Translations under genes and position numbers: made by a program
Shown here: piece by piece, positions 1 to 64,000 of the stretch
Layout: every line of letters begins with the position of its first letter
Numbering within the stretch: position 1 is the stretch's first letter
The notes under the pieces: model-generated
Databases searched by the model: none
What the model saw: the letters and a program-made list of their open reading frames with translations, nothing else
What the model was told of the DNA's origin: nothing
Sequence record: MK327937.1
From: Escherichia phage vB_EcoM_G10400
DNA: 64,000 nucleotides
Direction: 5' to 3' (one strand)

Positions 1-2178
1 TTAAGCCGCAAGGGCCTTCATAGTTTTAGCGATTTGGGAAACTTCATCATCACTTAAAGAGTTGCGATAACCGATGAAGTCGGAAACAATACGGAATTTC
101 TTAGTAAACTCAGTAACCATTTTATCACTGTTTTTTGAAGCATTGTTTGATAATACATCAAAAAGATTAGTTACTGTCCAGATGTCATGACCGATGGTAT
201 CTTTTCCACCGTTGAAATATACACCCTGTAATGAACTAACCATATTAGCGAGTCGTGTATATTCTTCGGAAACTTCATCTACACTGAAGTACTTCATCAT
301 AAAATCTAACTCAGGATACTTGATAATTTTATCAATATATCGTTTAGCTGAACTTGAATAACCTACATACTTATCATAATCTACATCATCAAAAGCATCT
401 ACATATAAATCACGTAGAGTTTCAAAAATACATTGGCACTGACCAAGTTCTTTTACCTTTTTCTGCAAAAGTGGACGAATAACATAAAATTCATTAATGC
501 CAATAAGATTAGCCATACGAGTCAAAATACTCGTAGATGGATGACAAAGCGATGTAGTACCATCCATAGAGAAAATATCAGAACGATGCATATACGCTAC
601 ATAACCAGTAATTTCATCTGCTTCTGATGTGAGTGTAAACAGTTCCTCTTTTTCCCAGCGTCCGTCTTTAATTTCAAACTTAAATGCAGTAGCAGCTTTA
701 GGACGAGGAGCTTTACTTTTAACTACCTTCGGAATATAACTTTTAACTAAAGCTTCAATTTCTGACAAATAATGAATGTTAACTTCATCACTTTCAAACA
801 TTGCCATAATATCAGGGAGTAAATCAATCTGTGATTCTACTTCCGGATTAATAAACAGAAGACGCTCATTATGATGAATATTTAAAGTGTTGTTAAATTC
901 TTTATCATCTAACGCATGCGCCAATCCACGGACAATATTAACACGATTTTTAATATTATCAATAACGATATTGATTTTTGTTGTATTAATACCAAACAGA
1001 CGATAACTTGATGCAACGGCCGAAGTTTCATGGCTTTGCTTAATGCGTTTCAGTCGAGGGTCAATATTTACTTCATACACAACTCCTGCATTGCATAACT
1101 TACTGTCAGGTTCAAACATGCTCTGCATCTTTTTATATGACAGATTTTTAGTCGTGAATTTGACTGAATTACTAATCATATAATCTCGAGCAGAATACCC
1201 CATCTTCATCAATTCACGATATGTGTGACGAGGAGATGTAGATTCTTTAAATCGTTTTACATCTTCATTGAATGCCTTCTCACTAAGCTCTTTAACACGC
1301 TCAATAATATTTTTACGAGTACGATCATCTAGTGAAAGAGCTTCGCGTGATGGAGCAATATCAAGTGAACCCATTGGAAACTTAATGTAATTCACTTCAT
1401 TGCGGATGCTTAACCAGTTACGGTCTCTAATAACACCATCGATAGGATAAACAATACCACCATAGATAGCATACAATCCACCACGATCTGGCCAGTATCT
1501 TTCTGGATTTACGCCGTAATAGTCATCAAAATCCGGAAAATAATCAATTTCGCGGTCAAGACCATTAATGATAGCCAAATCTTTGAATGGTCGCATGATA
1601 TAAGAAACTTCATAAGCAAAGTTTCTAAAGTCTTTTTCTTCAACTGGAACTACGATTTCAATACCAGTTTTATCGTCTGGACCCATTTCTTTTACGAATG
1701 TAGGTTTAATCTGCGGACCGTCACCATCCATATAAGCTACATAACCGCGAATTTCACCTTTATGGTACGAAGTAATACTAAACGTATCAGTATAACTAAA
1801 CGGAGATTTAGAACCTAAACCAAATCCACCAATGAAATCGTTAGATTCAGCCTTAGATGAACTGAAGTATGAATTATACAACCCAGGAGAATTATCATCA
1901 CCTTGAATATCAAAATCGCTCATACCTGGACCAAAATCTCGACAAACAAATCGCGGATCTAATCGTCCTGGAACTTGAATGATAAATTTTTCAGGATTTC
2001 CATTGAGAGCATGGGCATCAATCATGTTGGTAATCAATTCACGAACTACTGCGCGAATCTTGTTTGTATACAAATCAGATGACAGAATTTTGAATACTTT
2101 AGGAGATGCTGTGATGCTAAATGCTTTTGATTTAGAACCATTACCAAGAATTGTTTCTTTTTCAGTGGTGATAATCAT
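1..2178 (-). CDS. rIIA: rIIA protein (membrane-associated rapid-lysis/Rex-exclusion protein)
   Basis: 725 aa, ATG start at 2176-2178; N-terminus [20 protein letters not shown] and length match T4 rIIA as recalled; window begins at its TAA stop. Confidence 0.93.
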
Positions 2179-2188
2179 AATTTCCTCA

Positions 2189-2392
2189 TTAATTCATATT
2201 GCGTTTAATAACTTCAGCAACTTCTAGTAGTTCATCTTTAGTTGCAGTGTCGGATTGAATTTTATCTCTAATATCCTTAAAGCGGTTTTTAAACTCTTCG
2301 GCTTCTCCCATATCGAAAAAGCGTTGAATGATTCTATATTCTCGATGAACTGCTTTATCAAAAAGTTCTAAATTTACTTTATATGATTTCAT
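2189..2392 (-). CDS. rIIA.1: hypothetical protein, rIIA.1-like
   Basis: 67 aa ORF immediately downstream of early promoter and upstream of rIIA; same size and position as T4 rIIA.1 (recalled). Confidence 0.65.
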
Positions 2393-2447: not shown

Positions 2448-4264
2448 TACTGGCTCATCCATTCTTTACGAAGGTCAGCATTATCTCCCATGAGCATTTC
2501 AAAAAGCTCTTTCCAATTCTCAGGAAGTTTAACAACATCATATACTGGGTTTTGAATCATCTCACGATATTCAGATTTTTCCAAAGAACCAAGTCCTTTA
2601 ATATAACGGATGTTATGTTTAGGTAGAGCATCTTTGGCACTCTCATATTCAGCGACTGTATAAAACCATTCTTGTTTTTTACCGACCTGAGCGATGATTA
2701 CGGGAGTTTTGACAAAGCGAATTCGTCCTTGCTCAAACAGTTCTGGCCAATTACTAAAAAATCCGAGCAGAGAAGGATAAATGCTTCCTAGACCATCATG
2801 GTCAGCATCAGTCATAATAGCAATATTATGATAATTCAAGTTTTCAGCTTTTTCACCAAGAACTAATCCAGTGATTGCGCAAATATCAAATAGTTCTCTG
2901 TTTTTAAGCATATCTGCATAAGACATACCCCAGCTATTAAGAACTTTACCGCGCAATGGATAACCACCATGAAGTTCTTTATCACGAACATCAATAAGAT
3001 ATCCGATAGCCGAATCACCCTCAGTTAAGAATAATGTAGTATCAGCATCTTTACCGCAAAGATTCGCTTTGATATGTTTATGAACCTTAGCTTTAGAAGC
3101 CTTTTTAGCCGCTTTAGTTTCTGCTGCTTTTTCTGCCGCCAATTTACGAGCTAGTGCAGCTTCAATAATTGGCATCAGAATTGCTTCATTATTTAGAATA
3201 GCACGTGAAATCTTTTTAGCATCAAGTTGAATATGACTACGAATTTCGCCAAATGGAGAAGTCAAACGCTCTTTAGTTTGAGAATCAAATCGCATGTTTT
3301 TCATATCACGAACAAACATAACGATAGTCAAACATTCTTTGACACGCGCTTTAGTTACATCAATTTTGAACTTACGTTTGATTTGTGGAATAAGGTCTTC
3401 ACAAATATCATCCATAACACAGTCAATGTGATGGCCACCATTCTTAGTATGAATGTTATTGACGTATGTTAATTGACGAAAACCATCCGGTGAACGACCA
3501 ACCGCAATAGAACAATTTTCTTGTTCTTGAACAATAGCATGCTCATCATATTGGCGTGCATATTTCTTAAAATTGCCTTGAACCTTTTTACCATTAAAGG
3601 TAAATTGAATATCAGGATAAACTACTGCAAGTGTCTGGAGACGATCTAGTGTAATGTCAAGATAAACTTGGGACAGCTCATTAGTTTCAAATGACATAAA
3701 ATCTGGAATGAAAGTAACACGGGTTCCTTTCCATTTTCCAGGAATATCTTCCCATGATTTATTTTCCATGCCGTTTGAACAACGAACTACAATATTATTT
3801 TGACCATCACCAGTTTCACCGACAAACATCACAGAAAAAATGTTTGTCAAACTAGAACCAACACCATTCATACCGCCAGTGACGCGCTCTTTATCATCAC
3901 CGAAGTTACCACCTGCTTTTGGAATAGTCCATGCAGCAACAGGACCAGGAATTTCTTCACCGGTAGGTGTTTTAACCATTGCTTGTGGAATACCACGACC
4001 GTTATCTTCAACTGTTACTTGATTGTTTTTAATAGTAACATTAATTTTATTTGCGAATTTAAACTTAGTACGAATACCTTCATCTACTGAGTTATCGATA
4101 ATTTCATCAATAAGCTTAACAAGACCAGGTACATACTGAACACTTTCCCATTTACCAAACAGAAAGCGCTCATGCATTTCATTAGCAGAAGAGCCAATGT
4201 ACATGCCGCTACGCTTTTTGATATGTTCAATATCGCTCAGAATTTTAATTTCATTCTTAATCAT
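2447..4264 (-). CDS. 39: DNA topoisomerase II large subunit, fused gp39+gp60 form (GHKL ATPase + Toprim)
   Basis: 605 aa from ATG at 4264 (track start 4267 is GTG); ATPase motifs NGRGIP, GGMNGVG and Toprim LFLTEGDSA, MTDADHDG in one uninterrupted frame. Confidence 0.9.
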   Translation of the reverse strand: MIKNEIKILSDIEHIKKRSGMYIGSSANEMHERFLFGKWESVQYVPGLVKLIDEIIDNSVDEGIRTKFKFANKINVTIKNNQVTVEDNGRGIPQAMVKTPTGEEIPGPVAAWTIPKAGGNFGDDKERVTGGMNGVGSSLTNIFSVMFVGETGDGQNNIVVRCSNGMENKSWEDIPGKWKGTRVTFIPDFMSFETNELSQVYLDITLDRLQTLAVVYPDIQFTFNGKKVQGNFKKYARQYDEHAIVQEQENCSIAVGRSPDGFRQLTYVNNIHTKNGGHHIDCVMDDICEDLIPQIKRKFKIDVTKARVKECLTIVMFVRDMKNMRFDSQTKERLTSPFGEIRSHIQLDAKKISRAILNNEAILMPIIEAALARKLAAEKAAETKAAKKASKAKVHKHIKANLCGKDADTTLFLTEGDSAIGYLIDVRDKELHGGYPLRGKVLNSWGMSYADMLKNRELFDICAITGLVLGEKAENLNYHNIAIMTDADHDGLGSIYPSLLGFFSNWPELFEQGRIRFVKTPVIIAQVGKKQEWFYTVAEYESAKDALPKHNIRYIKGLGSLEKSEYREMIQNPVYDVVKLPENWKELFEMLMGDNADLRKEWMSQ

Positions 4265-12373: not shown

Positions 12374-12993
12374 TCAACTACCTCAATATCATACACTTTA
12401 AATGTTCCAAATGAATCGTGTAATTTTTCTTTTGAAATAGAAGTTATTTTATACTTTCCAATTGGAATCATCCATTCTTGTTCACGCACAATCATCATTA
12501 AGTTATCAGTACGTTCTGAATCTAACCCATCAGTATCTTCATATGTATACTTAAACTCAGTATTAGGAGAAGAAAGTATAATATCGCTGATATGGTCAGA
12601 ATAATTAAAAGCTTTATCAGTTTTTAAGCGAAATATTATTTCAGTGGAATATTCAACATAAGAAAAACCACATGCTGTATACAAACTAGTAGTAAATGAA
12701 TCTACTCTGTTCGTTGAAAACACTTCTCCAACTTGTAAATCTTTAATGAGTTCTTTTGTCGATTTTGATATACCACGATATAGCTGATAAGGCGATTTAG
12801 TTAAATGCTTTTTAACGATTTTATTCAACTGCCGATGAAGAGCTTCATTCTTTTTGGCTTCCATACATTGCCAAAGAATTGACTGTTCAAAGTCAGTAAA
12901 TTTTTCACAGACCTTTTTATACATATCATATTGAAAATCGACACTTTCAGCTTTTATAGATAACTGTTCAACATCTGCGAGATTAATAATCAT
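12370..12993 (-). CDS. modB: ADP-ribosyltransferase ModB
   Basis: 207 aa from ATG 12993 with GGAGG RBS; ART motifs LYRGIS, STN, EQEWMIP; ATGA overlap with modA. Confidence 0.85.
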   Translation of the reverse strand: MIINLADVEQLSIKAESVDFQYDMYKKVCEKFTDFEQSILWQCMEAKKNEALHRQLNKIVKKHLTKSPYQLYRGISKSTKELIKDLQVGEVFSTNRVDSFTTSLYTACGFSYVEYSTEIIFRLKTDKAFNYSDHISDIILSSPNTEFKYTYEDTDGLDSERTDNLMMIVREQEWMIPIGKYKITSISKEKLHDSFGTFKVYDIEVVE

Positions 12994-13019
12994 GATAGCC
13001 TCCATATACTTCAGAAACT

Positions 13020-13049
13020 ATCATATCATTGTTAGGAAGGAAAGTAAAC
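13020..13049 (-). promoter_or_regulatory. early promoter
   Basis: minus strand gtttac + 18 nt + tatgat upstream of modB. Confidence 0.5.
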
Positions 13050-13060
13050 AACTTTTTGAA

Positions 13061-13243
13061 TTATTTTGCCCAGGGAGCCCAGGGCGGAGGGTCAAGATGG
13101 TATGAAGCTAGTTCTTCTAGAAGAGCATCTGGGGCTTCAATTCCATAATTCTGTAATACTATACGGTACTCTTTCTTATAATCACTAGAATCATTCTGGA
13201 TATTCGTAGAATGATTATCTTCTAACATCTCAAATAAATCCAT
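13061..13243 (-). CDS. hypothetical protein
   Basis: 60 aa ORF. Confidence 0.4.
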   Translation of the reverse strand: MDLFEMLEDNHSTNIQNDSSDYKKEYRIVLQNYGIEAPDALLEELASYHLDPPPWAPWAK

Positions 13244-13251
13244 ACTAATTC

Positions 13252-13734
13252 CTAGCGATAAAAACCAAATTGACGATTAGCTTCAATAATCTTTCTTTCT
13301 TCTTCGGACATTCTCCAGCGTAGTCCAACATCAAAATGAGCCCAGACCATCCTAACAAATGCATTTATATCTTTAATATCTTCAATAATGAATGTTTTAC
13401 TTTTAGAAGGTTGACCTGCTAAATTAAGTGCTAATTTAACGTTATCATCTTCAAACAGGTCAAAAAGACCATATTCATGAGCTCTTTTATAGCCTTTAAT
13501 AGTTAAAGCTTCAGAAGAAGAAAACGGTGAATCAGTATTCTGCAAAATATCTTCAGTATGCTTTATAATTAGAATAATATTTTCTGGATATTTTCTTTCT
13601 TTTATATCTTTAATTAAAAAATCCGGATTTTCTGCTAAAGGAATAATTAATGAGCATTTTTTATCAAGTGTATTTACTGATTTACCTTCTTTAGACATAA
13701 ATTCTATTGAATAATGTTTTGCTACTTCAATCAT
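13252..13734 (-). CDS. hypothetical protein
   Basis: 160 aa ORF. Confidence 0.55.
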
Positions 13735-13891
13735 GGGATTTCCTTTTGCCTACTAATGGACCATCGGGAATTTTGTTTTCCTGGATATATTTCTCATTTT
13801 CTTCCATCATTTTACTGCCAATTTTAAGAAGCAAATCCATTGCTTCATTTGCTTTTGCTTTAGCCTCTTCCAATGTCATATCTTTGTTCAT
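13727..13891 (-). CDS. hypothetical small protein
   Basis: 54 aa hand-translated ORF filling the gap; ATGA overlap upstream, ATGATTGA overlap downstream. Confidence 0.4.
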
Positions 13892-14091
13892 GATTTATCC
13901 CCATAGATGTCTCTCATCAATTTAAGCGCTGAGCGTTCTAATTTCTTTTCTTTCTCAGCACTAATCATTGATTTCATCCATTCTTCCGATTCGTTCTGCA
14001 TTTCTTTATTTGCTTGTTCAACCCAACCATCATCAATATACATTGAGTTTGGTCTATTGAACCATTCAAGTATTTTCTTCAGAACTTTCAT
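13888..14091 (-). CDS. hypothetical protein
   Basis: 67 aa ORF. Confidence 0.5.
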
Positions 14092-14563
14092 TTGTTTTAC
14101 CTAAAACGACAGTAGGAGCATCGTCAAATTCATGAATTTTTAGCAAATTTGGATTTAAATTATTCCATAAAGAAGTAATAAAATATGATAAAGCATCTTC
14201 GTCCACAATTATAAACTTATTTCCTTTATCTATTTCCCAACTATATGCTGAATCATATGAATAAAAAGATAAAGGTTCATCATTATATTTTTCTGTGTTA
14301 ACATTAATGTATTCTGATTTAGTAAATGCTTCAATTGCTCTAAATGGAATATTTTGTACAGTTTCAATAATACCAATCTTTTTAAGTTTTATTTCAGCAT
14401 CTTCTGGAACTGGCATTGAAACGAATTTTTTTACGAGATACATTGGGTCACAATAACCCTTATCAATCATTACTGCTACAGTAATTGGAACATCTTTAGC
14501 AAACGACATGCTATTACTGCTAATATACATTTCAAACAAAATCGCTTCCATAATTTTCCTCAA
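14066..14563 (-). CDS. hypothetical protein
   Basis: 165 aa ORF. Confidence 0.55.
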
Positions 14564-14901
14564 TCACAAGATGTAGATGAACAACTAGAATCACAAGAAC
14601 TTCCACATGAATCGCCCGTCCATACATGAACAGGAACATTAGTATCATATGAATCAGAACTAGACTGTGTATTCTGTACGTTAGATGATGTAGTAGGTAC
14701 TGACCAGCGCCAAGGATTTTTATAATATTCTTGGGCTTCTTCATAAGTCATAGTAACTGCTTCTACTGTTCCATCTCCCATATAAACATACTCAACTACA
14801 GTTAAAGGAAGGTAGTCATTTGAAATAGGAACTACACCTTCCCCAGGAGTCGTAGAGAAAAAATCCGTAAAGAAACTTTTAAACCAATTAAAGATAAACA
14901 T
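14560..14901 (-). CDS. hypothetical protein with Cys/Ser-rich C-terminal tail
   Basis: 113 aa; C-terminus [19 protein letters not shown]. Confidence 0.55.
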
Positions 14902-15107
14902 TACAAAAAGCCTCTTTTGAATTCAACTTGCTTCTCACCATAATCATATCGAATCTCTGCATTAAATTCGACAGAGCCATCTGCGTACATCATAAATGAA
15001 TGAACAACAACTTCTGTAGACCATGGTTGCAATTCATATTTCTTCATTACATGCCGTGAAATGATAATATCTAAATCTTCATTTGGTTTAATCCAACGAT
15101 TTAACAT
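14901..15107 (-). CDS. hypothetical protein
   Basis: 68 aa ORF downstream of early promoter. Confidence 0.5.
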   Translation of the reverse strand: MLNRWIKPNEDLDIIISRHVMKKYELQPWSTEVVVHSFMMYADGSVEFNAEIRYDYGEKQVEFKRGFL

Positions 15108-15133
15108 AGTGCTCTCCTCTATAAGATAATTCT

Positions 15134-15163
15134 ATTATACCATACTCATTTTGGAAAGTAAAC
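15134..15163 (-). promoter_or_regulatory. early promoter
   Basis: minus strand gtttactttccaaaatgagtatggtataat. Confidence 0.6.
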
Positions 15164-15171
15164 CGTTTAAA

Positions 15172-15198
15172 TGAAAAAGGACTCCCGAAGGAGTCCTT
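15172..15198 (-). terminator. intrinsic terminator, UUCG tetraloop + U-run
   Basis: minus strand aaggacuccUUCGggaguccuuuuu just downstream of soc. Confidence 0.7.
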
Positions 15199-15204
15199 GA
15201 ATTA

Positions 15205-15441
15205 TTAACCACCTATTTCTGTAGGCGTAAACATTGCAGCATTCTTAGTTTTCCAGTCAGCTGCATCAGAAACTACAGTAGAATATGCCGCCTTTTCAGA
15301 AGGAAAGGTCTGATAATGAGAATCTGCAATACGATGCTCGTTAGAATAGATTTCAAACGGAACAGAAACTTCCATACCTTTAACTTCTTTACCTTCACCC
15401 GCTGGATGAGTAAAGGTCTTTATATTAACGAAACCACCCAT
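15205..15441 (-). CDS. soc: small outer capsid protein Soc
   Basis: 78 aa; HYQTFPSEKAAYSTV matches T4 Soc; late promoter TATAAATA upstream, tetraloop terminator downstream. Confidence 0.9.
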   Translation of the reverse strand: MGGFVNIKTFTHPAGEGKEVKGMEVSVPFEIYSNEHRIADSHYQTFPSEKAAYSTVVSDAADWKTKNAAMFTPTEIGG

Positions 15442-15472
15442 AATAAACTCCTTTATTGTTTAATTACAGGTG

Positions 15473-15480
15473 TATTTATA
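15473..15480 (-). promoter_or_regulatory. late promoter core TATAAATA
   Basis: exact TATAAATA on minus strand ~32 nt upstream of soc ATG. Confidence 0.6.
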
Positions 15481-15654
15481 TCAATCTTCAATGAAAACTT
15501 GTGCCAGGAATTCATGCTCATCTTGAATTTGTTTATATAAAGCCATTACAGCATTTATGTTAGAGCTATCTACTTTAAGTTGATAAGCATACCACTCATG
15601 TAAATTAATTAAAGCTTTTTGACGTCTAATAAATTCTTCTTTGGATATTTTCAT
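15481..15654 (-). CDS. hypothetical small protein
   Basis: 57 aa hand-translated ORF; ATGA overlap with upstream ORF. Confidence 0.4.
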   Translation of the reverse strand: MKISKEEFIRRQKALINLHEWYAYQLKVDSSNINAVMALYKQIQDEHEFLAQVFIED

Positions 15655-15851
15655 TTTGAATGCTCTATAATTAATTTTAAGGCCTCTTCACTGACAAAAA
15701 TTTCGTCAGGACCTTCTTCTACAACCCAATCAACCATACGAAGCTGATTAGATAAGAGCTCACATACGAGCTCCTTGTCATAGTCTTTAAATAGCTGGTC
15801 AATACGTTTCTTGCGGGCTTTCTTGAGCTGGCGTTTATTTAAACGAGCCAT
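15651..15851 (-). CDS. hypothetical protein
   Basis: 66 aa ORF. Confidence 0.5.
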   Translation of the reverse strand: MARLNKRQLKKARKKRIDQLFKDYDKELVCELLSNQLRMVDWVVEEGPDEIFVSEEALKLIIEHSK

Positions 15852-16369
15852 TAATAGCCTCGGTCTTGACGAGCGAAATTTTCAGCATTTTTCAGATAAT
15901 AAAGTTTAAAGATTTCTTCTGCTGTAAGACCAAGACCTTGGAACATATTCAGAACGAAATGAAGAATATCAATCATTTCGAATTTGATTTCTAACTGATC
16001 CTGTGGAGACAAATCAGTAATCAGAGTTTCACGACGTTCACCATGTTGAGCTTTCCAAGGCTTCCATACAGCAGATGCATCTTTTTCGCCATTACTCATA
16101 CCGCCAAGAGAAGTCAGAAGTTCGCGGAATTCATCATCAATATAGTCTTTCTGATTGCGCAGCCAATCAACAACTTCACCTGCGGTAGCCAAATCATCAG
16201 GATGACGGTTATATTCAGGTTTATCTTTAGCTAAACGAACCTGTAGAGATTTCTGCATATCAAGCATAACCTGTAGTGGGTCTTTTTCATCACCAAGAAT
16301 ATCCCAGTATTCATTTTGAGCTTTATCAGCGCCTTCGATCAGTTGTGAACATTCATTAAAGTAAGCCAT
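15851..16369 (-). CDS. 56: dCTP pyrophosphatase (dCTPase/dUTPase)
   Basis: 172 aa from ATG 16369 with AGGA RBS (track start 16462 is GTG); MazG-like motifs; matches T4 gp56 size. Confidence 0.85.
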   Translation of the reverse strand: MAYFNECSQLIEGADKAQNEYWDILGDEKDPLQVMLDMQKSLQVRLAKDKPEYNRHPDDLATAGEVVDWLRNQKDYIDDEFRELLTSLGGMSNGEKDASAVWKPWKAQHGERRETLITDLSPQDQLEIKFEMIDILHFVLNMFQGLGLTAEEIFKLYYLKNAENFARQDRGY

Positions 16370-16403
16370 TATTTTTCCTTTCAATTCATGGGTTAGTAGA
16401 TTA

Positions 16404-16429
16404 ATTATACAATAAATATATAAAGCAAT
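16404..16429 (-). promoter_or_regulatory. middle (MotA-box) promoter candidate
   Basis: minus strand ATTGCTTTA + 12 nt + TATAAT upstream of gene 56. Confidence 0.45.
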
Positions 16430-16440
16430 AAGGAGGACAT

Positions 16441-16641
16441 ATGGTACAAAAATTAATGGCACTTGTTAATGCCATAAAAGGTAATAAGAAACGTATAGCT
16501 TTTACTATTTCTGCTATGGTAGGAATTTTACTCTGGAACTTTATTTTATCACCTGTTGCAATTGCACATGGTATTAATATTCCAGTAGTTACTCTTGATA
16601 CATTCGTAGATTTAGCATTTGCTTTAGTTGGGTTAATTTAA
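16441..16641 (+). CDS. hypothetical small membrane protein (only credible plus-strand gene)
   Basis: 66 aa, AAGGAGG SD 4 nt before ATG; two hydrophobic segments; lies in intergenic gap between genes 56 and 61. Confidence 0.45.
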   Translation: MVQKLMALVNAIKGNKKRIAFTISAMVGILLWNFILSPVAIAHGINIPVVTLDTFVDLAFALVGLI

Positions 16642-17666
16642 ATCTTAGCATATTTAGATAGCCGCATTTTAGCCATCAACCCCTGGGCAATATTATTTTT
16701 CATATATTCCATAATTTGTTCAGGGGTTGCACCTTCCTTTCTAATCATATCATTAACATCTTTTGATTTCCAGGGAGATTTATCCCAAAACATAACCCTT
16801 TCTCCTGCATCAACTAATTTAGTCATTCGTTTAATAGTGTCAGGGTGACGAGGTTCATTATCTAAAACCCACACACGTCTATCTTTAAATGGAACAACTT
16901 CTAGGTCTAATTGACCACCTGTAATAGCTATACCATTTTCAATAAAAAGTGAATCTATAGGTCCTTCTAGAACATATACATCACCATCTTTAACTCGTTC
17001 GACTCCATAGATTTTTGTTGCTTCAGGATAAGCTTTGATAGTGATATATTTTTGGGGAGCATCTTTCTTTAATGCACGTCCTTGAAAAGACTCAGCTTTT
17101 CCATTAGCATTATAAATTGGAATAACAAGACGAGGCTCAGGTATTTCCTTTTTATATGTTCCCGGTGCTATGCTATTAACTAATTTAGGCCATTCGGTTG
17201 TAAACCAAAGATATTTCCATTTATCCTTTGGAATACAACGAGCTTTTACATATTTTATAATTGGATGGTCTTCCGCCAGTTTATCTAATCTAACACATGA
17301 CGGAAGAGATTTAATTATTTTCTTCTCAGGTTGTTTAGGAAGTTCTTTAGGTTTTTCTACTGGACGACTTTTACCTTTTTCTTTTCTTATTTCAAAGATA
17401 TACTCACGATATAAATCAGGTTCAAACTCCTTTAAATATATTCCGATTGGTGCATGATAGTTACAGTTATAACAATGAATATTTCCTTCATTATTATCAC
17501 CATAATACCATCCACGAGCTTTATTCTGGTCGGTTTTTGAATCTCCGCAAACAGGGCATCTAAACCGTAATTTAAAAGTTGAACTATTATTTACTTGTGT
17601 GAATTTAGGTAAATGAGCCAATGCACGATACGCAAACTCATTATCAATCCAAGGTATTGATGACAT
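16638..17666 (-). CDS. 61: DNA primase
   Basis: 342 aa; zinc ribbon CPVCGDS...CYNC and Toprim; matches T4 gp61 length. Confidence 0.93.
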   Translation of the reverse strand: MSSIPWIDNEFAYRALAHLPKFTQVNNSSTFKLRFRCPVCGDSKTDQNKARGWYYGDNNEGNIHCYNCNYHAPIGIYLKEFEPDLYREYIFEIRKEKGKSRPVEKPKELPKQPEKKIIKSLPSCVRLDKLAEDHPIIKYVKARCIPKDKWKYLWFTTEWPKLVNSIAPGTYKKEIPEPRLVIPIYNANGKAESFQGRALKKDAPQKYITIKAYPEATKIYGVERVKDGDVYVLEGPIDSLFIENGIAITGGQLDLEVVPFKDRRVWVLDNEPRHPDTIKRMTKLVDAGERVMFWDKSPWKSKDVNDMIRKEGATPEQIMEYMKNNIAQGLMAKMRLSKYAKI

Positions 17667-17668
17667 TT

Positions 17669-17833
17669 TTACTCTTCTTTTTCTTTAGATTCCTCTTTTT
17701 TCTTTTTAGGAATCTGTTCAGGACCTTTATTTACTACAGCACCTGATGTTGTTCCAGTAGAGATATTTTCAGGATTACCACCTGAATCTCCAGCAACCAT
17801 ATCTTCTTTAATAAATTCTTTATATGTTTTCAT
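17669..17833 (-). CDS. hypothetical small protein (61.1-like)
   Basis: 54 aa hand-translated ORF, Lys/Glu-rich C-terminus. Confidence 0.45.
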   Translation of the reverse strand: MKTYKEFIKEDMVAGDSGGNPENISTGTTSGAVVNKGPEQIPKKKKEESKEKEE

Positions 17834-17879
17834 ATTAACCTCTATTCATAAAAGCATTAAAAATTTGGTCATCAATAGA
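17831..17879. repeat. 49-bp direct repeat, copy A
   Basis: catattaacctctattcataaaagcattaaaaatttggtcatcaataga; 48/49 identical to copy B. Confidence 0.85.
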
Positions 17880-18191
17880 TGGCGCAGTAATATTTTCTGC
17901 ATCATTTAGCAAATCATTAATTTCATCGGATAGCATAACACATGTACCTTTATTTCCTGTAATTGTTACTGCGCAATTACGAACGTTTTCTTTATTAAAT
18001 TTTAGGTTAATATTTTCGTAATGAAAATCCTTTAATGCTGAATATATTTTTAAAATAAAATTGTCTTTTACTACAATAAACCCAACCTCACTATTAAAAC
18101 GTGGTTCATGGAAACTGTAATAAACCTTTTCATCTATGAAATCGTATGAAATTTTTTCCATTTTTAAATATGAAAATTCAGAACTATACAT
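17835..18191 (-). CDS. hypothetical protein flanked by 49-bp direct repeats
   Basis: 118 aa; last 14 codons and stop are inside a repeat copy shared with the next ORF. Confidence 0.55.
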   Translation of the reverse strand: MYSSEFSYLKMEKISYDFIDEKVYYSFHEPRFNSEVGFIVVKDNFILKIYSALKDFHYENINLKFNKENVRNCAVTITGNKGTCVMLSDEINDLLNDAENITAPSIDDQIFNAFMNRG

Positions 18192-18237
18192 ATTAATCTC
18201 TATTCATAAAAGCATTAAAAATTTGGTCATCAATAGA
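18189..18237. repeat. 49-bp direct repeat, copy B
   Basis: catattaatctctattcataaaagcattaaaaatttggtcatcaataga. Confidence 0.85.
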
Positions 18238-18819
18238 AACATTTACTTTAGACTGTTTTTCAGATGGCAATTCATATCCACATATTACAATTTTATGATC
18301 AATATCAAAATACACAGAAGCAATATGATTAATGATATTTTCAGTGAAGTCTAAATCGACATCAATATCTTTTTGACCAAAGCCAAAAGGATAAATAATG
18401 CGAGTAATTCGATTATCTTTAACAAAGATTCCACCGACATACTCTGTACTGCGTTTAAAGTCTACACGCCGACGAAATGAAAAATATTCAGGCTCTTTAT
18501 GAGCTCGGCTCATAGGACACAACGAATAACTAGAATAAGAGATGTCAAATCCTACGCCTTCGATATGAGCCAAAGTGTCATGATTAAACCAATTATAATC
18601 GTACGCCAAATCCATTAGATTATAATATGTAAAAGGCACCGGATTAACATCATTAGTCACAAGCATATAATTAGCAACTGCTATAATTTCATTGTTTTTA
18701 ACGAATACAAACCGTGATTGATGCGAATGGCCTGAACCCGCGTTTTCACGATTAATGATATAACACTGGGCACCTTTATATTTGTATGTATCTTTGCACT
18801 TGTGCATTTGATAGAGCAT
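18193..18819 (-). CDS. hypothetical protein (61.2-like)
   Basis: 208 aa ORF; C-terminus SIDDQIFNAFMNRD. Confidence 0.6.
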   Translation of the reverse strand: MLYQMHKCKDTYKYKGAQCYIINRENAGSGHSHQSRFVFVKNNEIIAVANYMLVTNDVNPVPFTYYNLMDLAYDYNWFNHDTLAHIEGVGFDISYSSYSLCPMSRAHKEPEYFSFRRRVDFKRSTEYVGGIFVKDNRITRIIYPFGFGQKDIDVDLDFTENIINHIASVYFDIDHKIVICGYELPSEKQSKVNVSIDDQIFNAFMNRD

Positions 18820-19112
18820 TATTCACCTACCACTTCAGCGATGATATTTTTGTTATTAAAGTTTTTATCGCAATACAGAACATAATTATACTGCATTACA
18901 CCACCAGACTTAAGTTGTTTTTGCACTTCAGCTTTCATTTCAGGACGATCGCGCTCAACGATATTCATAATATCCGCTTCAATTTGAGTTTCAACTTCAG
19001 TCTGATCCGCAGTCATAGACCATTCGCACAAATCTTTATCATAACCTGCCATAGCAGGCTGAGCAGCACAAGAAGCTAAAGCAAAAATTGCGGCAAAGAT
19101 AAATTTTTTCAT
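18819..19112 (-). CDS. sp: spackle periplasmic protein (superinfection exclusion, gp5-lysozyme inhibitor)
   Basis: 97 aa with signal peptide MKKFIFAAIFALASCAAQPAMA; size and position match T4 Sp. Confidence 0.8.
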   Translation of the reverse strand: MKKFIFAAIFALASCAAQPAMAGYDKDLCEWSMTADQTEVETQIEADIMNIVERDRPEMKAEVQKQLKSGGVMQYNYVLYCDKNFNNKNIIAEVVGE

Positions 19113-19140
19113 GATAATCTCCTCAGTAGTTTATGTTTAT

Positions 19141-19170
19141 ATAGTATCTCAATTTCCAACAAAAGTAAAC
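19141..19170 (-). promoter_or_regulatory. early promoter
   Basis: minus strand gtttac + 18 nt + tactat upstream of sp. Confidence 0.5.
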
Positions 19171-19172
19171 AG

Positions 19173-19472
19173 TTATTTTAAAACTTCTGCGTAATCACAT
19201 GTTACAAACTGTTTCTCTAGCTTGACGATTTTACGAAAGTATCTTTTACATTGACGAATCTGTCGCTTAGTAGGGCGCACAGCAAACTTAATAAATTCCA
19301 CTCGACCAAATGGAGGGCTTTCTTCTGATGGAATATCTAACACCAATTCCCACGTATCTGCAATAAGTGCTTTGAATTGAGTATTTTTCCTAACGTTATA
19401 CGGAGTAGGTTTAAATAAAACAATATGCATATTATCCTCGGCAATCCACTTCACATACTTTCTTGTCATCAA
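19173..19472 (-). CDS. hypothetical protein
   Basis: 99 aa ORF. Confidence 0.5.
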   Translation of the reverse strand: MMTRKYVKWIAEDNMHIVLFKPTPYNVRKNTQFKALIADTWELVLDIPSEESPPFGRVEFIKFAVRPTKRQIRQCKRYFRKIVKLEKQFVTCDYAEVLK

Positions 19473-19614
19473 TGAAAGCTTTAACTAATGCTTTATTAAC
19501 TTCAGCATACTGAGTAGTAGCCCATTGAACGTCATCTTTCATCATTGTGGTTTCTTTAGTAAACATGCTTTCATTCTTAAACCACCCCATAAAAACTACC
19601 TTTACCAATTCCAT
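19432..19614 (-). CDS. dmd: Dmd-like antitoxin (inhibitor of host RnlA/LsoA toxins)
   Basis: 60 aa, position just upstream of gene 61 cluster and below gene 41; matches recalled T4 Dmd. Confidence 0.6.
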   Translation of the reverse strand: MELVKVVFMGWFKNESMFTKETTMMKDDVQWATTQYAEVNKALVKAFIDDKKVCEVDCRG

Positions 19615-19643
19615 AACAATCTCCTCATTTAACCAACAAGACT

Positions 19644-19673
19644 ACTATACCATAGTCTCGTCAGCTTGTAAAC
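19644..19673 (-). promoter_or_regulatory. early promoter
   Basis: minus strand gtttacaagctgacgagactatggtatagt upstream of dmd, overlapping gene 41 stop. Confidence 0.55.
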
Positions 19674-21100
19674 TAAAATTTTAATTCATTCGCCAAAGCA
19701 TCTAACTGAGCTCGAGTGGATTCATTTCTTTGATAGCGATTCTGCTCAGCCTGAATCTGTTGTGAACCTGCTACTTCGTTCACTTCAGTTGGAGTAGAAT
19801 CTTGTTCAATTTCTACCCATTTCTGATTTCCCTTTTGAACACCCATCAAAAACTTATTCCACTTATTCTTATCGCCATATCGTGATTTGATTTGCTTAAT
19901 GAGTTGTTGTTCAGCAGCTGCTAGCTCCTCGGTTTCAATGACCGCAAGCATAAAATCAGCTGTTGCTGGAAGACCGGCAGATTCTGCGATATCACTCATG
20001 TTAACATCAGAAGAATCCCAAGCTTGTTTACCAACCTGTGCTGCAGTCCAAAGAACAGTTTCGGTTTCAACAGCCAGAGCACGCAATTCCTCTGCAATAG
20101 CTTTAACAGTTGTGTAACTATTTTCTGAATAAACTCTAATGCGGCAAGATTTACAAATACCTAGATAGTCGACAATAATGATTGTTGGAACAAAATTCTT
20201 CTTGAGCTTCAATTCGTTTAAAAGTGATCGAAATGTATTAGCATCTGCTCCACCGGTAGGATACTGTTTAACGATTAAACGACCGAGAGTAGATTTCTCA
20301 CGCCATTTTTCCATTTTTCCTTTATACTCAGCGTAAGAAATATGCCCATCATCAATGTCATCAAGAGAAACATCAAGCATATTAGCATCAATACGCTTAG
20401 CACAGACTTCTTCTGCCATTTCCATGGAAATGTAAAGAACGTTATGACCAAGCTGCAAATAATCTGCTGCCAATGAACACAATCCTAATGACTTACCAAC
20501 GTTAACGCCAGCCATTAAAACGTTCAGTGTTCCAGTCTCAGCTCCGCCTTTAGTAATTTTGTTTAGAATTCTGAGTTTAAATGGAACCTTACGAGCTTTA
20601 TTCATATAAGATAGCCAACGTGCTTCGTAGTCATCCATCCAGTCATGACCAACGTAGCTATCAAATGAAATTGATAATGCTTGCCGCATGATGTCAGGAA
20701 TAGCACCAACATCCGGCATTTTCTTATTTCGTTTTTCCGGAGGAAGCTCAGCATTAGTTTGAATTTCGATTATTTTAGACGTAGCATTAAACATCGCCCT
20801 TTGCTGAACATATTTTTCTGTTTCTTTTACTAACCAGCTGTGGTCTTCCGGAGAATCAGCCAGTTTTGAAATAAGTGTTTTTACACCAGAATATTCTGTT
20901 TCAGTAAATGAACTATTTTCTAATGCAACATTTAACGCATTAATAGATGGAACGCTATGATACTCATTAACATGAGATTTAATTAATTTGAATGTATTTT
21001 TAGCTGGACCACTTTCAAAATATTCTGAATCCATATATGGCCAAACTTTTGAAAAATAAGCTTGATCAAATATGAGATGAGAAAGAATAATTTCTACCAC
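19673..21100 (-). CDS. 41: replicative DNA helicase (DnaB-like)
   Basis: 475 aa; Walker A GVNVGKS; matches T4 gp41. Confidence 0.95.
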   Translation of the reverse strand: MVEIILSHLIFDQAYFSKVWPYMDSEYFESGPAKNTFKLIKSHVNEYHSVPSINALNVALENSSFTETEYSGVKTLISKLADSPEDHSWLVKETEKYVQQRAMFNATSKIIEIQTNAELPPEKRNKKMPDVGAIPDIMRQALSISFDSYVGHDWMDDYEARWLSYMNKARKVPFKLRILNKITKGGAETGTLNVLMAGVNVGKSLGLCSLAADYLQLGHNVLYISMEMAEEVCAKRIDANMLDVSLDDIDDGHISYAEYKGKMEKWREKSTLGRLIVKQYPTGGADANTFRSLLNELKLKKNFVPTIIIVDYLGICKSCRIRVYSENSYTTVKAIAEELRALAVETETVLWTAAQVGKQAWDSSDVNMSDIAESAGLPATADFMLAVIETEELAAAEQQLIKQIKSRYGDKNKWNKFLMGVQKGNQKWVEIEQDSTPTEVNEVAGSQQIQAEQNRYQRNESTRAQLDALANELKF

Positions 21101-44575: not shown

Positions 44576-44616
44576 AATAAACCCTTACCTTAAATAGATA
44601 AGGGTATTTATTATTT

Positions 44617-60962: not shown

Positions 60963-61324
60963 TACAAACTCTCGGTGAAGGTACGAGCAATAACGTCGCG
61001 CTGCTGTTCCGGAGTCAGAGAGTTAAAGCGAACTGCATAACCAGATACACGGATGGTCAGCTGCGGATATTTTTCCGGATGCTTAACTGCATCTTCCAGA
61101 GTTTCACGACGCAGAACGTTAACGTTCAGGTGTTGACCACCTTCAATTTTAACTGTAGGCTGTTGCTCAATTTCAATTTCACGGGCATGCAAACCGTAGA
61201 AAATTTCTGGGTCTACAAAAGAGTCCTCTTTAAAGGTTTTAGAGACAATAATTCGTGCTTGAATACCATCTTCAAAATAAATAGTACCTTTATGTGTGCC
61301 TTCAAGAATTTGATATGCTTTCAT
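60962..61324 (-). CDS. autonomous glycyl radical cofactor (GrcA/YfiD-like spare-part protein)
   Basis: 120 aa; C-terminal ~70 aa [61 protein letters not shown] matches E. coli GrcA/PflB C-terminus as recalled. Confidence 0.85.
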
Positions 61325-61331
61325 ATAAACC

Positions 61332-61658
61332 TCAATTAGAAAATAAATTTATCCAAGATTGTTCTTTAATTAAAAATGGCTCAGAATCATATGCCATTAA
61401 ACTTTGGGTGATTAGTCCTTTAAAAGGTCCATCAATAAATTCCATGGTAAAATATGGAATTTTATTCATTAACTGTGCGTTAGGAGCAGTGCACAAAACT
61501 CTGCATCCTTTGAATACACCTTTTTGTAATTTGTATTGCTTGGGATAAAATTCGCTTAAAATGTTGTTATTTGCCAAAATTTCAAAATGATTTACCAATT
61601 TATTTTTAATAGTTTTTGGCGAAAAATAGAGATATTCGAAAAGCTGTGTGTCTGTCAT
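61332..61658 (-). CDS. hypothetical protein
   Basis: 108 aa from ATG 61658 (TAATG overlap with upstream ORF). Confidence 0.5.
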
Positions 61659-62254
61659 TATTGCATTCCGATTACGAAAAACTGTGGACGAGTAATACCA
61701 CCAATGCAACATTTACTATTACAGCAGTAGTGTACAGTGTCAATATGGACGCTATAAATCTTATCCATATCAGGAGATTTGACAGGCTCATCAATTATAT
61801 ACAAAATTCGCGAAAGCGATAAACCTCTGAACTTGCTTCCTTTATTACCAATAAAACTGCGTACAGAATCAGTAAATAAACGAAAACGTATATCATCATT
61901 AGAATAACGCGAAAATTCCTTTTTAATGTTATTTGCAGAAATTTTAGCGTAAGCTGAAGTATTAGAAAGAACAATAACTGTTCCGCCATCATACAGCCAA
62001 TTAGCAGCAAAGTTAGTCACAGCAATTGATTTACCAGATTGACGTCCACCATCTATACGAAGTGTGCAGTACTGTTTAAGTAATTCTTCAAATGGCGGGA
62101 TATATTCGTTTTTACAAATTTCTTCTACTCTAGCATCAGAATGGTGTGTAAAAGCATTCATCAGGGATAGATACGGGCCAGTTAAAAATGTTCTCATATT
62201 TTCTCTCTTAATTTTTGGGCCATTCCATGGCACATGAGTTGTCCATTCCTGCAT
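61658..62254 (-). CDS. putative P-loop NTPase
   Basis: 198 aa; Walker A GGRQSGKS and Walker B-like ILYIIDEP; start uncertain. Confidence 0.5.
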   Translation of the reverse strand: MQEWTTHVPWNGPKIKRENMRTFLTGPYLSLMNAFTHHSDARVEEICKNEYIPPFEELLKQYCTLRIDGGRQSGKSIAVTNFAANWLYDGGTVIVLSNTSAYAKISANNIKKEFSRYSNDDIRFRLFTDSVRSFIGNKGSKFRGLSLSRILYIIDEPVKSPDMDKIYSVHIDTVHYCCNSKCCIGGITRPQFFVIGMQ

Positions 62255-63291: not shown

Positions 63292-63822
<531 letters not shown>

Positions 63823-64000
63823 TTAAAAGAGGTTGTTCATTATTCGGTAAAGTGAAGGACCCATCACATATTGCCACTGAGTACGAGGAATAAGAGCAAA
63901 AGCGTCCATCTCTGGAATCATAACGCCATCTTTATTTTCAAAATAAGACTCGCAGCGGCAATTTCTAAACATCTCATGCTCTACTGGAATCATATAATAA
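63823..64000 (-). CDS. hypothetical protein, C-terminal fragment (CDS runs off window end)
   Basis: 58 C-terminal codons ending ...GPSLYRIMNNLF with stop at 63823-63825. Confidence 0.45.
   Translation of the reverse strand, partial: YYMIPVEHEMFRNCRCESYFENKDGVMIPEMDAFALIPRTQWQYVMGPSLYRIMNNLF

Follow-up and report, generated by a model that had tools for sequence, protein, structure and literature searches.

A conserved opposite-strand gene for a predicted inner-membrane microprotein, with a putative late promoter, between genes 56 and 61 of T4-like phages

We have analyzed a stretch of 64,000 nucleotides from Escherichia phage vB_EcoM_G10400 (sequence record MK327937.1), the whole of which is called the window here. 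Between gene 56 and gene 61, both on the minus strand, an open reading frame (ORF) runs along the plus strand (Table 1), and its product of 66 amino acids is MVQKLMALVNAIKGNKKRIAFTISAMVGILLWNFILSPVAIAHGINIPVVTLDTFVDLAFALVGLI. The ORF and gene 61 have the four nucleotides TTAA at 16638-16641 in common in their stop codons, while 71 nt of intergenic DNA lie between the ORF and gene 56. We scanned the whole 64-kb window for ORFs of 40 aa or more that start with ATG on the plus strand, and the sole one found within a gap between minus-strand ORFs was this, so that the description of a lone plus-strand ORF amid minus-strand genes was borne out. A second candidate of this kind, at 61315-61548, was rejected, being antisense to a real minus-strand gene. 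The original prediction had also spoken of a small hydrophobic ORF with an AAGGAGG Shine-Dalgarno (SD) sequence that converges on the primase stop, and both the coordinates and the sequence confirm it. A GGAGG-type SD was present at the equivalent place in all of the 11 homologous loci compared.

The closest genome at the locus was Escherichia phage FriedrichZschokke (Bas41, a Tequatrovirus), with 99.9% identity, followed by RB51, RB68 and RB27, at about 97%. The ends of the window were 95-97% identical to Bas41, i.e., the window is not exactly Bas41, and for this reason what we say about the rest of the genome rests on relatives. On the minus strand, the early one, a terminator-like hairpin was detected within the ORF (RNA fold of -8.9 kcal/mol, z -2.2). 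The equivalent site is annotated as "terminator" in Yersinia phage fPS-65, and we regard the hairpin as a candidate terminator.

Table 1. Features at the locus between genes 56 and 61 (positions in the window)
Feature	Position	Strand	Details
Gene 56 (dCTPase/dUTPase)	15851..16369	-	Left neighbour, divergent from the ORF
MotA-dependent middle promoter of gene 56	16404..16430	-	Box TATTGCTTTA at 16430..16421, 11-nt spacer, TATAAT at 16409..16404
Putative gp55-dependent late promoter AATAAATA	16411..16418	+	A(-13) variant of TATAAATA; 22 nt before the ATG
Shine-Dalgarno AAGGAGG	16430..16436	+	4 nt before the ATG; read from the sequence
CDS of the 66-aa membrane microprotein	16441..16641 (stop included)	+	ATG to TAA; from the ORF list
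Terminator-like hairpin followed by a U-rich tract	16446..16475	-	Terminator scan; inside ORF codons 2-12, downstream of gene 61
Gene 61 (DNA primase)	16638..17666	-	Right neighbour, convergent with the ORF

The gene is not new. Contrary to the novelty that the original prediction implied, it already figures as a hypothetical gene in the annotations of Bas41, RB14, RB51, RB69 and VR7. In Bas41 it is labelled bas41_0145, hypothetical protein, and in RB14 and RB51 "RB32ORF030w, similar to RB69ORF029w", while RB69 and VR7 list it as RB69ORF029w and VR7ORF033w, respectively. All these names designate the same gene as the one in the window, with which they agree in position, strand, length and HMM family. 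Hundreds of genomes altogether list it as a hypothetical gene. The protein matches the HMM of phrog_2024 ("unknown function") with an E value of 1.4e-31, residues 2-66 aligning to profile positions 1-65 of 65, and the same profile was matched by each of 11 diverse homologues. Compared with the window, only the flanks vary among these phrog_2024 relatives, which may have a dam cassette, a tandem paralogue (Gaprivervirus) or a terminator after the ORF (Jiaodavirus). The names read in the sequence clusters were "hypothetical" or "uncharacterized", the sole exception being one automated UniRef entry called "Holin". In the records of T6 and BW-1 the name "putative head morphogenesis protein" is found, which we consider an artefact of automated name transfer; we have rejected it because in the same T6 record soc goes under the name "terminase small subunit" and gene 56 under "ferredoxin". 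We also searched the literature for the names of the ORF and for unannotated small proteins of T4, and found no mention of it, nor any evidence for it, in any phage, from transcripts, ribosome profiling or proteomics.

Searching with the ORF by tblastn, we found matches in 696 phage records, and in 686 of them the ORF was covered over at least 80% and was intact. The number of phage records rose to 945 when a divergent homologue was used as query. In six genera of Tevenvirinae (Tequatrovirus, Mosigvirus, Gaprivervirus, Kanagawavirus, Jiaodavirus and Gelderlandvirus), the opposite strand between genes 56 and 61 holds an ORF of 63-69 aa, and we have seen this same position and orientation in the window, Bas41, RB14, T4, T2, T6 and RB69. 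The homologues are convergent with gene 61, with the exception of Jiaodavirus Metamorpho, where the convergence is with an inserted minus-strand ORF instead. In Gaprivervirus the locus contains a second, tandem paralogue. The protein in the window is identical to that of RB14 and 54% identical to that of phage AlbertHofmann, a Mosigvirus (the genus of RB69). Across genera the identity to the window protein falls to 23-55% and the DNA can barely be aligned. At these distances W32, N33, P38, G44, P48 and G64 are invariant, the conserved core can be written W-N-[F/Y]-x3-P, and the hydrophobic pattern is kept.

The nucleotide changes were counted by the method of Nei and Gojobori. In every pair with synonymous differences, pN was lower than pS. 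The Jiaodavirus pair gave an omega of 0.14 (20.5 synonymous and 13.5 non-synonymous changes) and the Gaprivervirus pair one of 0.27, while the window and RB14 differ by 4 synonymous changes and no non-synonymous ones. These counts show that the ORF, as far as can be judged from its substitutions, evolves under purifying selection. Judged by this and by its distribution, the ORF is a genuine protein-coding gene with a product of ca. 65 aa, conserved across the enterobacterial T4-like phages (Tevenvirinae).

The genome of T4 itself (NC_000866) contains the intact 66-aa ORF, at 17738..17938, in addition to dam. The SD is the same as in the window and the proteins differ by two amino acids (A25T and I45V). 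In the T4 RefSeq entry, 309 bp between the start of dam (17625) and the stop of gene 61 (17935) are unannotated and hold the ORF, whose annotation is absent from three T4 entries (NC_000866, KJ477684 and the old K03113). For the exact T4 protein sequence, the protein collection had nothing but an automatic gene call made on assemblies, devoid of an NCBI or UniRef accession. In T2, the locus includes dam, an extra ORF of 181 aa and the intact 66-aa ORF; an extra ORF beside dam is found in fPS-65 as well. In T6, RB14, Bas41 and the window, the ORF directly adjoins gene 56, and in T6 its ATG start codon is replaced by ATT. The T4 RefSeq entry agrees with the statement in the original prediction that the T4 Dam methyltransferase gene sits between genes 56 and 61. 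Its statement that dam is missing here holds as well, given the intergenic region of 71 nt and a tblastn search with T4 Dam, for which neither the window nor the remainder of Bas41 gave more than noise (E values of at least 0.7). For the comparison with T4 the original prediction had named two outcomes, that T4 has the same interval and that dam maps elsewhere. The first was found, as T4 has the same ORF and SD, and the second was not, as dam does not map elsewhere.

Dam DNA of the T4 type was detected in 184 phage records and the ORF, at 90% identity or more, in about 500 Tequatrovirus records. Since T4 and T2 carry both, and in view of these numbers, dam is, on the evidence of the genomes compared, an accessory cassette, an insertion/deletion polymorphism between gene 56 and the ORF that is present in roughly one third of the Tequatroviruses. 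By the same comparison, the ORF neither replaces dam nor depends on it.

The product has the features of a small membrane protein. The Kyte-Doolittle mean over 19 residues reaches about 2.0 across residues 19-42, just after the basic stretch KGNKKR (residues 13-18). No basic residue is found beyond R18, and the protein ends in ...DLAFALVGLI. Of its tryptic peptides only LMALVNAIK is a convenient one, so that detection by mass spectrometry would be difficult. In Jiaodavirus the C-terminal hydrophobic segment is ca. 15 residues long, too short to span the membrane, so that a second membrane span is unlikely as a feature of the family. AlphaFold2, run with an alignment of 13 sequences, predicted helices at residues 2-12, 16-42 and 52-63 (mean pLDDT 81), the last two joined by the loop HGINIPVVT. 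An earlier prediction for RB69ORF029w gave a single transmembrane segment, at residues 21-41, and no signal peptide (Nolan et al., 2006). Taken together, these features suggest that the product is probably a single-pass inner-membrane microprotein with its N-terminus inside. The positive-inside rule would place the N-terminus in the cytoplasm and the acidic tail (D53, D57) in the periplasm.

We have found no homology to any characterized protein in the databases searched. Pfam, NCBIfam and PADLOC gave no significant match for the protein, a profile search of PDB sequences produced only noise (E values of at least 0.4), and with Foldseek against BFVD we recovered only members of the ORF family. 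A word-index protein search retrieved only close relatives. Searching 1.84 billion cluster representatives with phmmer gave nine matches, made up of family members and three long repeat proteins (a translated DNA repeat, an SH3b-like repeat protein and a PQQ-like beta-propeller), and these three we have discarded as coincidences of composition or motif. In the beta-propeller, the blade motif "LLWNF..SPAVANG" resembles the transmembrane segment of the ORF by chance. When the ORFs of all six frames in the window and the remainder of Bas41 were scanned, a set that includes the small membrane proteins of the phage itself, no paralogue was detected, and the best non-self match had an E value of 0.21.

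Upstream of the SD we have identified a putative late promoter, AATAAATA. The late promoters of T4 have a TATAAATA box at -13 to -6 and lack a -35 element, and late transcripts appear once DNA replication has begun. A(-13) is the commonest variant among the T4 late promoters, found in 9 of the 50 listed (PMC2988020), and position -13 is poorly conserved among T4-like phages (PMC1524935). In 12 of 13 loci, RB69 included, the heptamer ATAAATA precedes the ATG by 12-22 nt, within flanks that have diverged. The motif reads GATAAATA in T4 and ATTAAATA in Gelderlandvirus, both off consensus, and CATAAATA in Gaprivervirus, and Kanagawavirus Q7622 has a perfect TATAAATA. In the 64-kb window there are three plus-strand and five minus-strand NATAAATA sites. 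All five on the minus strand are placed just upstream of an SD and an ATG, and among them are those of soc (at 15480) and e (at 63820/63807). The T4 late genes soc and e, each with a late promoter of its own, are comparable to the ORF, as they have NATAAATA a few tens of nucleotides upstream of an SD and an ATG within an early/middle block. They differ from it in that both lie on the early-gene strand and have perfect TATAAATA boxes, whereas the ORF runs against that strand and its putative late promoter is the A(-13) variant. A suitably placed sigma-70-like promoter was looked for on the plus strand, and none appeared in the scan.

Only late transcripts may run opposite to the early/middle polarity (PMC2988020), and a plus-strand gene within a minus-strand early block should therefore be late. 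The promoter motif and the orientation together suggest that the ORF is likely transcribed late. On the opposing side, the list of RB69 late promoters obtained by Nolan et al. with an HMM has no plus-strand site near 16.0 kb, which means that their HMM did not score AATAAATA upstream of RB69ORF029w above its threshold. A T4 dRNA-seq preprint (bioRxiv 10.1101/2024.04.04.588121) gives the number of phage start sites as 150, of which 22 are antisense. The start predicted here, near 16424, is equivalent to position ca. 17722 of NC_000866.

The same intergenic region accommodates the middle promoter of gene 56. The MotA middle-promoter consensus consists of (a/t)3TGCTTtA, 12+/-1 bp and TAtaaT (PMC2988021), and the promoter found here matches it perfectly. 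A minus-strand MotA-box promoter for gene 56 had been claimed before, and it does lie there, at 16430..16404. In T4 the homologous MotA promoter is located between dam and gene 56. The plus-strand late-promoter motif falls inside the 11-nt spacer of the MotA promoter, and the SD of the ORF is directly next to the MotA box. Judging from the upstream sequences, the middle and late promoters of Mosigvirus and Gaprivervirus are back-to-back or overlapping, and in T4 and T2 the dam cassette puts about 1 kb between the two. As the promoters are interleaved in genomes that lack dam, such as the present one, the 71-bp region would amount to a compact divergent middle/late pair. It could be speculated that the overlap makes middle and late polymerases mutually exclusive. 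According to the T4 RefSeq entry, oriA is found 22 nt into gene 56 from its 5' end, and the transcript of gene 56 serves as its primer. This position adjoins the interval, and makes the remark in the original prediction about the nearness of oriA a fair one.

Several other explanations of the locus have to be weighed against this background. That dam is missing here and present between genes 56 and 61 in T4 could be taken to mean that the ORF is a novelty of this lineage that has come to occupy the place of dam, and the original prediction implied that the ORF and the lack of dam are connected. This connection does not survive the comparison with T4 and T2, which possess the intact ORF besides dam. 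These two loci refute the notion, and the distribution contradicts it too, with the ORF in ca. 500 Tequatrovirus records and five other genera and dam DNA in 184 records; we give it practically no credence. It could also be argued that the ORF is not expressed and has been kept open by constraints on the other strand, such as the 3' UTR or terminator of gene 61 or sequences related to oriA. The terminator-like hairpin of the early strand does lie inside the codons of the ORF, oriA is annotated nearby in T4, and the annotators of the T4 reference left the ORF uncalled. Against this, the hairpin takes up about 20 of the 201 nt, and its conservation does not extend beyond Tequatrovirus, whereas the ORF, its SD and its start are intact over six genera in DNA that can barely be aligned. 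Besides, hydrophobic periodicity and specific residues are conserved, and pN is lower than pS. An intact, conserved ORF with such a ratio rules out one held open by chance through constraint on the other strand, and we consider the absence of expression very improbable.

A main function at the level of RNA or promoter deserves more attention. According to it, the transcript would run antisense into gene 61 and the gp55-containing RNA polymerase would occlude the MotA promoter, helping to shut off early and middle genes, and the peptide would be secondary. The stops of the ORF and gene 61 overlap in Tequatrovirus, Mosigvirus, Kanagawavirus CIP9 and Gelderlandvirus, no plus-strand terminator was found after the ORF within the scanned region, and the late motif is placed inside or against the MotA promoter. 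Neither of the two effects is conserved. In Jiaodavirus a GC-rich terminator hairpin comes directly after the ORF, so that antisense read-through into gene 61 is not a common property, and the distance of ca. 1 kb between the late promoter and that of gene 56 in T4 and T2 indicates the same for occlusion. Moreover, the selection acts on amino acids, and the membrane pattern is kept at 23-55% identity, which an antisense RNA does not need. We think it improbable that this is the main function. The protein might, on the other hand, be a small lysis protein resembling a holin or pinholin. At least one transmembrane domain, as in holins, is indicated by the hydropathy, the AlphaFold2 helix 16-42 and the published RB69 prediction; class II/III holins and pinholins are likewise small and hydrophobic, and the ORF, with its one clear transmembrane helix and a second hydrophobic segment at the C-terminus, is probably expressed late too. 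The UniRef entry that carries the name "Holin" is A0A482MZV5, from phage OE5505. The ORF differs from these holins in having no charged hydrophilic tail at the C-terminus (it ends ...ALVGLI, and the other genera are similar) and in being outside a lysis cassette, surrounded instead by genes for replication and nucleotide metabolism. In addition, the second hydrophobic segment of Jiaodavirus cannot span the membrane, a T-type holin, spanins and an endolysin are already encoded elsewhere (in Bas41), no holin family of Pfam or NCBIfam was matched, and all the other source names read in the clusters are "hypothetical" or "uncharacterized". A holin is thus quite unlikely.

The best overall explanation, and in our opinion a likely one, is that of a conserved late gene that codes for an inner-membrane microprotein and has its own late promoter. 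AATAAATA would most likely be read by transcription dependent on gp55, gp33 and gp45, and the late mRNA would start near 16424 with a leader of ca. 17 nt. The basic N-terminus (K4, K13, K16, K17 and R18) would stay in the cytoplasm, residues ca. 19-42 would cross the inner membrane, and the short acidic tail of about 24 residues, with the helix 52-63, would be directed toward the periplasm or the membrane interface. The invariant W-N-[F/Y]-x3-P face would be located in the half of the helix that lies in the outer leaflet, and the loop would add its conserved G and [LIV]P. Association between helices is classically driven by a buried Asn. This face and the loop residues would probably mediate a helix-helix contact, either with another copy or with a partner membrane protein, and the protein would then bind another inner-membrane protein, or oligomerize, late in the infection.

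The small inner-membrane proteins of T4 (the RI antiholin, Imm and Ac) and the regulatory membrane microproteins of bacteria belong to a similar size class, with one N-terminal membrane helix and a short extracytoplasmic part. They probably act by binding other membrane proteins, as we propose for the product of the ORF. Imm is a gene of the early strand, unlike the ORF. The ORF family also has its own invariant W-N-[F/Y]-x3-P, and the likeness to the small membrane proteins of T4 is one of general features. As no characterized homologue was found, any cellular role is a guess. Ours, more probably wrong than right, is that the protein tunes some late event at the envelope, such as the timing of lysis, the control of the holin or the integrity of the membrane.

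In other respects the gene is a conserved hypothetical one of the usual kind, and phages commonly differ in whether they have dam. The analysis leaves as by-products a gap in the T4 annotation, a well-supported putative assignment of a late promoter and a compact divergent arrangement of middle and late promoters. T4 is the reference for the phage family, and yet the 309-bp "gap" of its RefSeq entry contains a gene that is under selection and common to six genera. Proteomics, CRISPRi screens and transcript quantification based on the T4 annotation will miss this gene, and adding the CDS to the T4 reference would be an inexpensive correction. The locus also provides a clean case of a putative late gene that runs antisense inside a block of early genes, with a promoter that, in the phages that lack dam, is interleaved with a MotA middle promoter. 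A further possibility, which we regard as unlikely, is that the protein is an unrecognized player in one of the classic membrane phenotypes of T4, acting through its W-N-[F/Y]-x3-P face, and that the promoter pair perhaps works as a middle-to-late switch near oriA. If this were true, the candidate phenotypes would be the timing or inhibition of lysis, the resistance to lysis from without and the membrane-bound assembly of the head.

We have found the small ORF (window 16441-16641, plus strand) intact in the T4 reference genome (NC_000866.4 17738..17938, plus strand; 3739-3939 of our T4 locus, L001), where it codes for 66 aa, is preceded by a Shine-Dalgarno (SD) sequence and lies in a 309-bp stretch that separates dam from gene 61 and carries no annotation. 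The exact T4 protein had no NCBI or UniRef accession and was found only among automatic gene calls from assemblies. In the T6 record AP018814.1 (about 16228-16428; L012 1462-1662) ATT replaces ATG as the start codon, and the annotated CDS begins at Met6. The label given there, 'putative head morphogenesis protein', was rejected as a plainly wrong name, the same record also calling soc 'terminase small subunit' and gene 56 'ferredoxin'.

The search of 1.84 billion proteins produced multi-repeat matches that we consider spurious. They were generated by the membrane segment LLWNFILSPVAIAHG, which is similar to the PQQ-like beta-propeller blade motif 'LLWNFTTG...SSPAVANG' (16441-16641 compared with P0037, a protein from that search), a likeness that we judge to be a coincidence.

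On the early (minus) strand, downstream of gene 61, a terminator-like hairpin falls within codons 2-12 of the small ORF, and the annotation of fPS-65 has a 'terminator' at the equivalent site. Outside Tequatrovirus this hairpin is not conserved. As a separate observation, the small ORF has a second paralogue, of the Kanagawavirus type, in Gapriverviruses; the two are arranged in tandem, with the first copy immediately upstream.

Hairpin within the small ORF and second paralogues of the small ORF in Gapriverviruses
Feature	Genome or locus	Position	Strand	Description
Terminator-like hairpin	window	16446-16475	minus	ATGGCAUUAACAAGUGCCAU then UUAAUUUUUGU; -8.9 kcal/mol, z -2.2
Second paralogue	VR7 (L008)	about 1501-1700		unannotated; C-terminus seemingly altered
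Second paralogue	TH57 (L006)	about 2193-2310		N-terminus truncated
Second paralogue	TH15 (MT446392)	160693-161090		apparently full-length

Within the early-gene block, late-promoter-type NATAAATA motifs were also detected at 44612 and 56789 (minus strand), each with an SD and ATG immediately downstream, adding to the copies of soc (15480) and e (63820 and 63807). After the motif at 44612 comes an inverted repeat, CCCTTA...TAAGGG, adjoining the start codon.

The window is a mosaic when compared with its sequenced relatives, among which no single genome was found to match it along the whole length. Identity to Bas41, the closest genome at the small-ORF locus, was 99.2% over 12.8-20.7 kb (12839-20666) and only 95-97% at the ends (1-475 and 63397-64000). 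Phages bov9_1 and bov10K1 matched the stretch 61150-61700 with 100% identity.

Within the dam cassette of T2 and fPS-65, a further hypothetical ORF (about 181-186 aa) lies upstream of dam, at L013 1126-1671 in T2 and at L019 941-1501 (g033c) in fPS-65. This ORF is missing from T4, so at least two sizes exist of the accessory insert that separates gene 56 from the small ORF.
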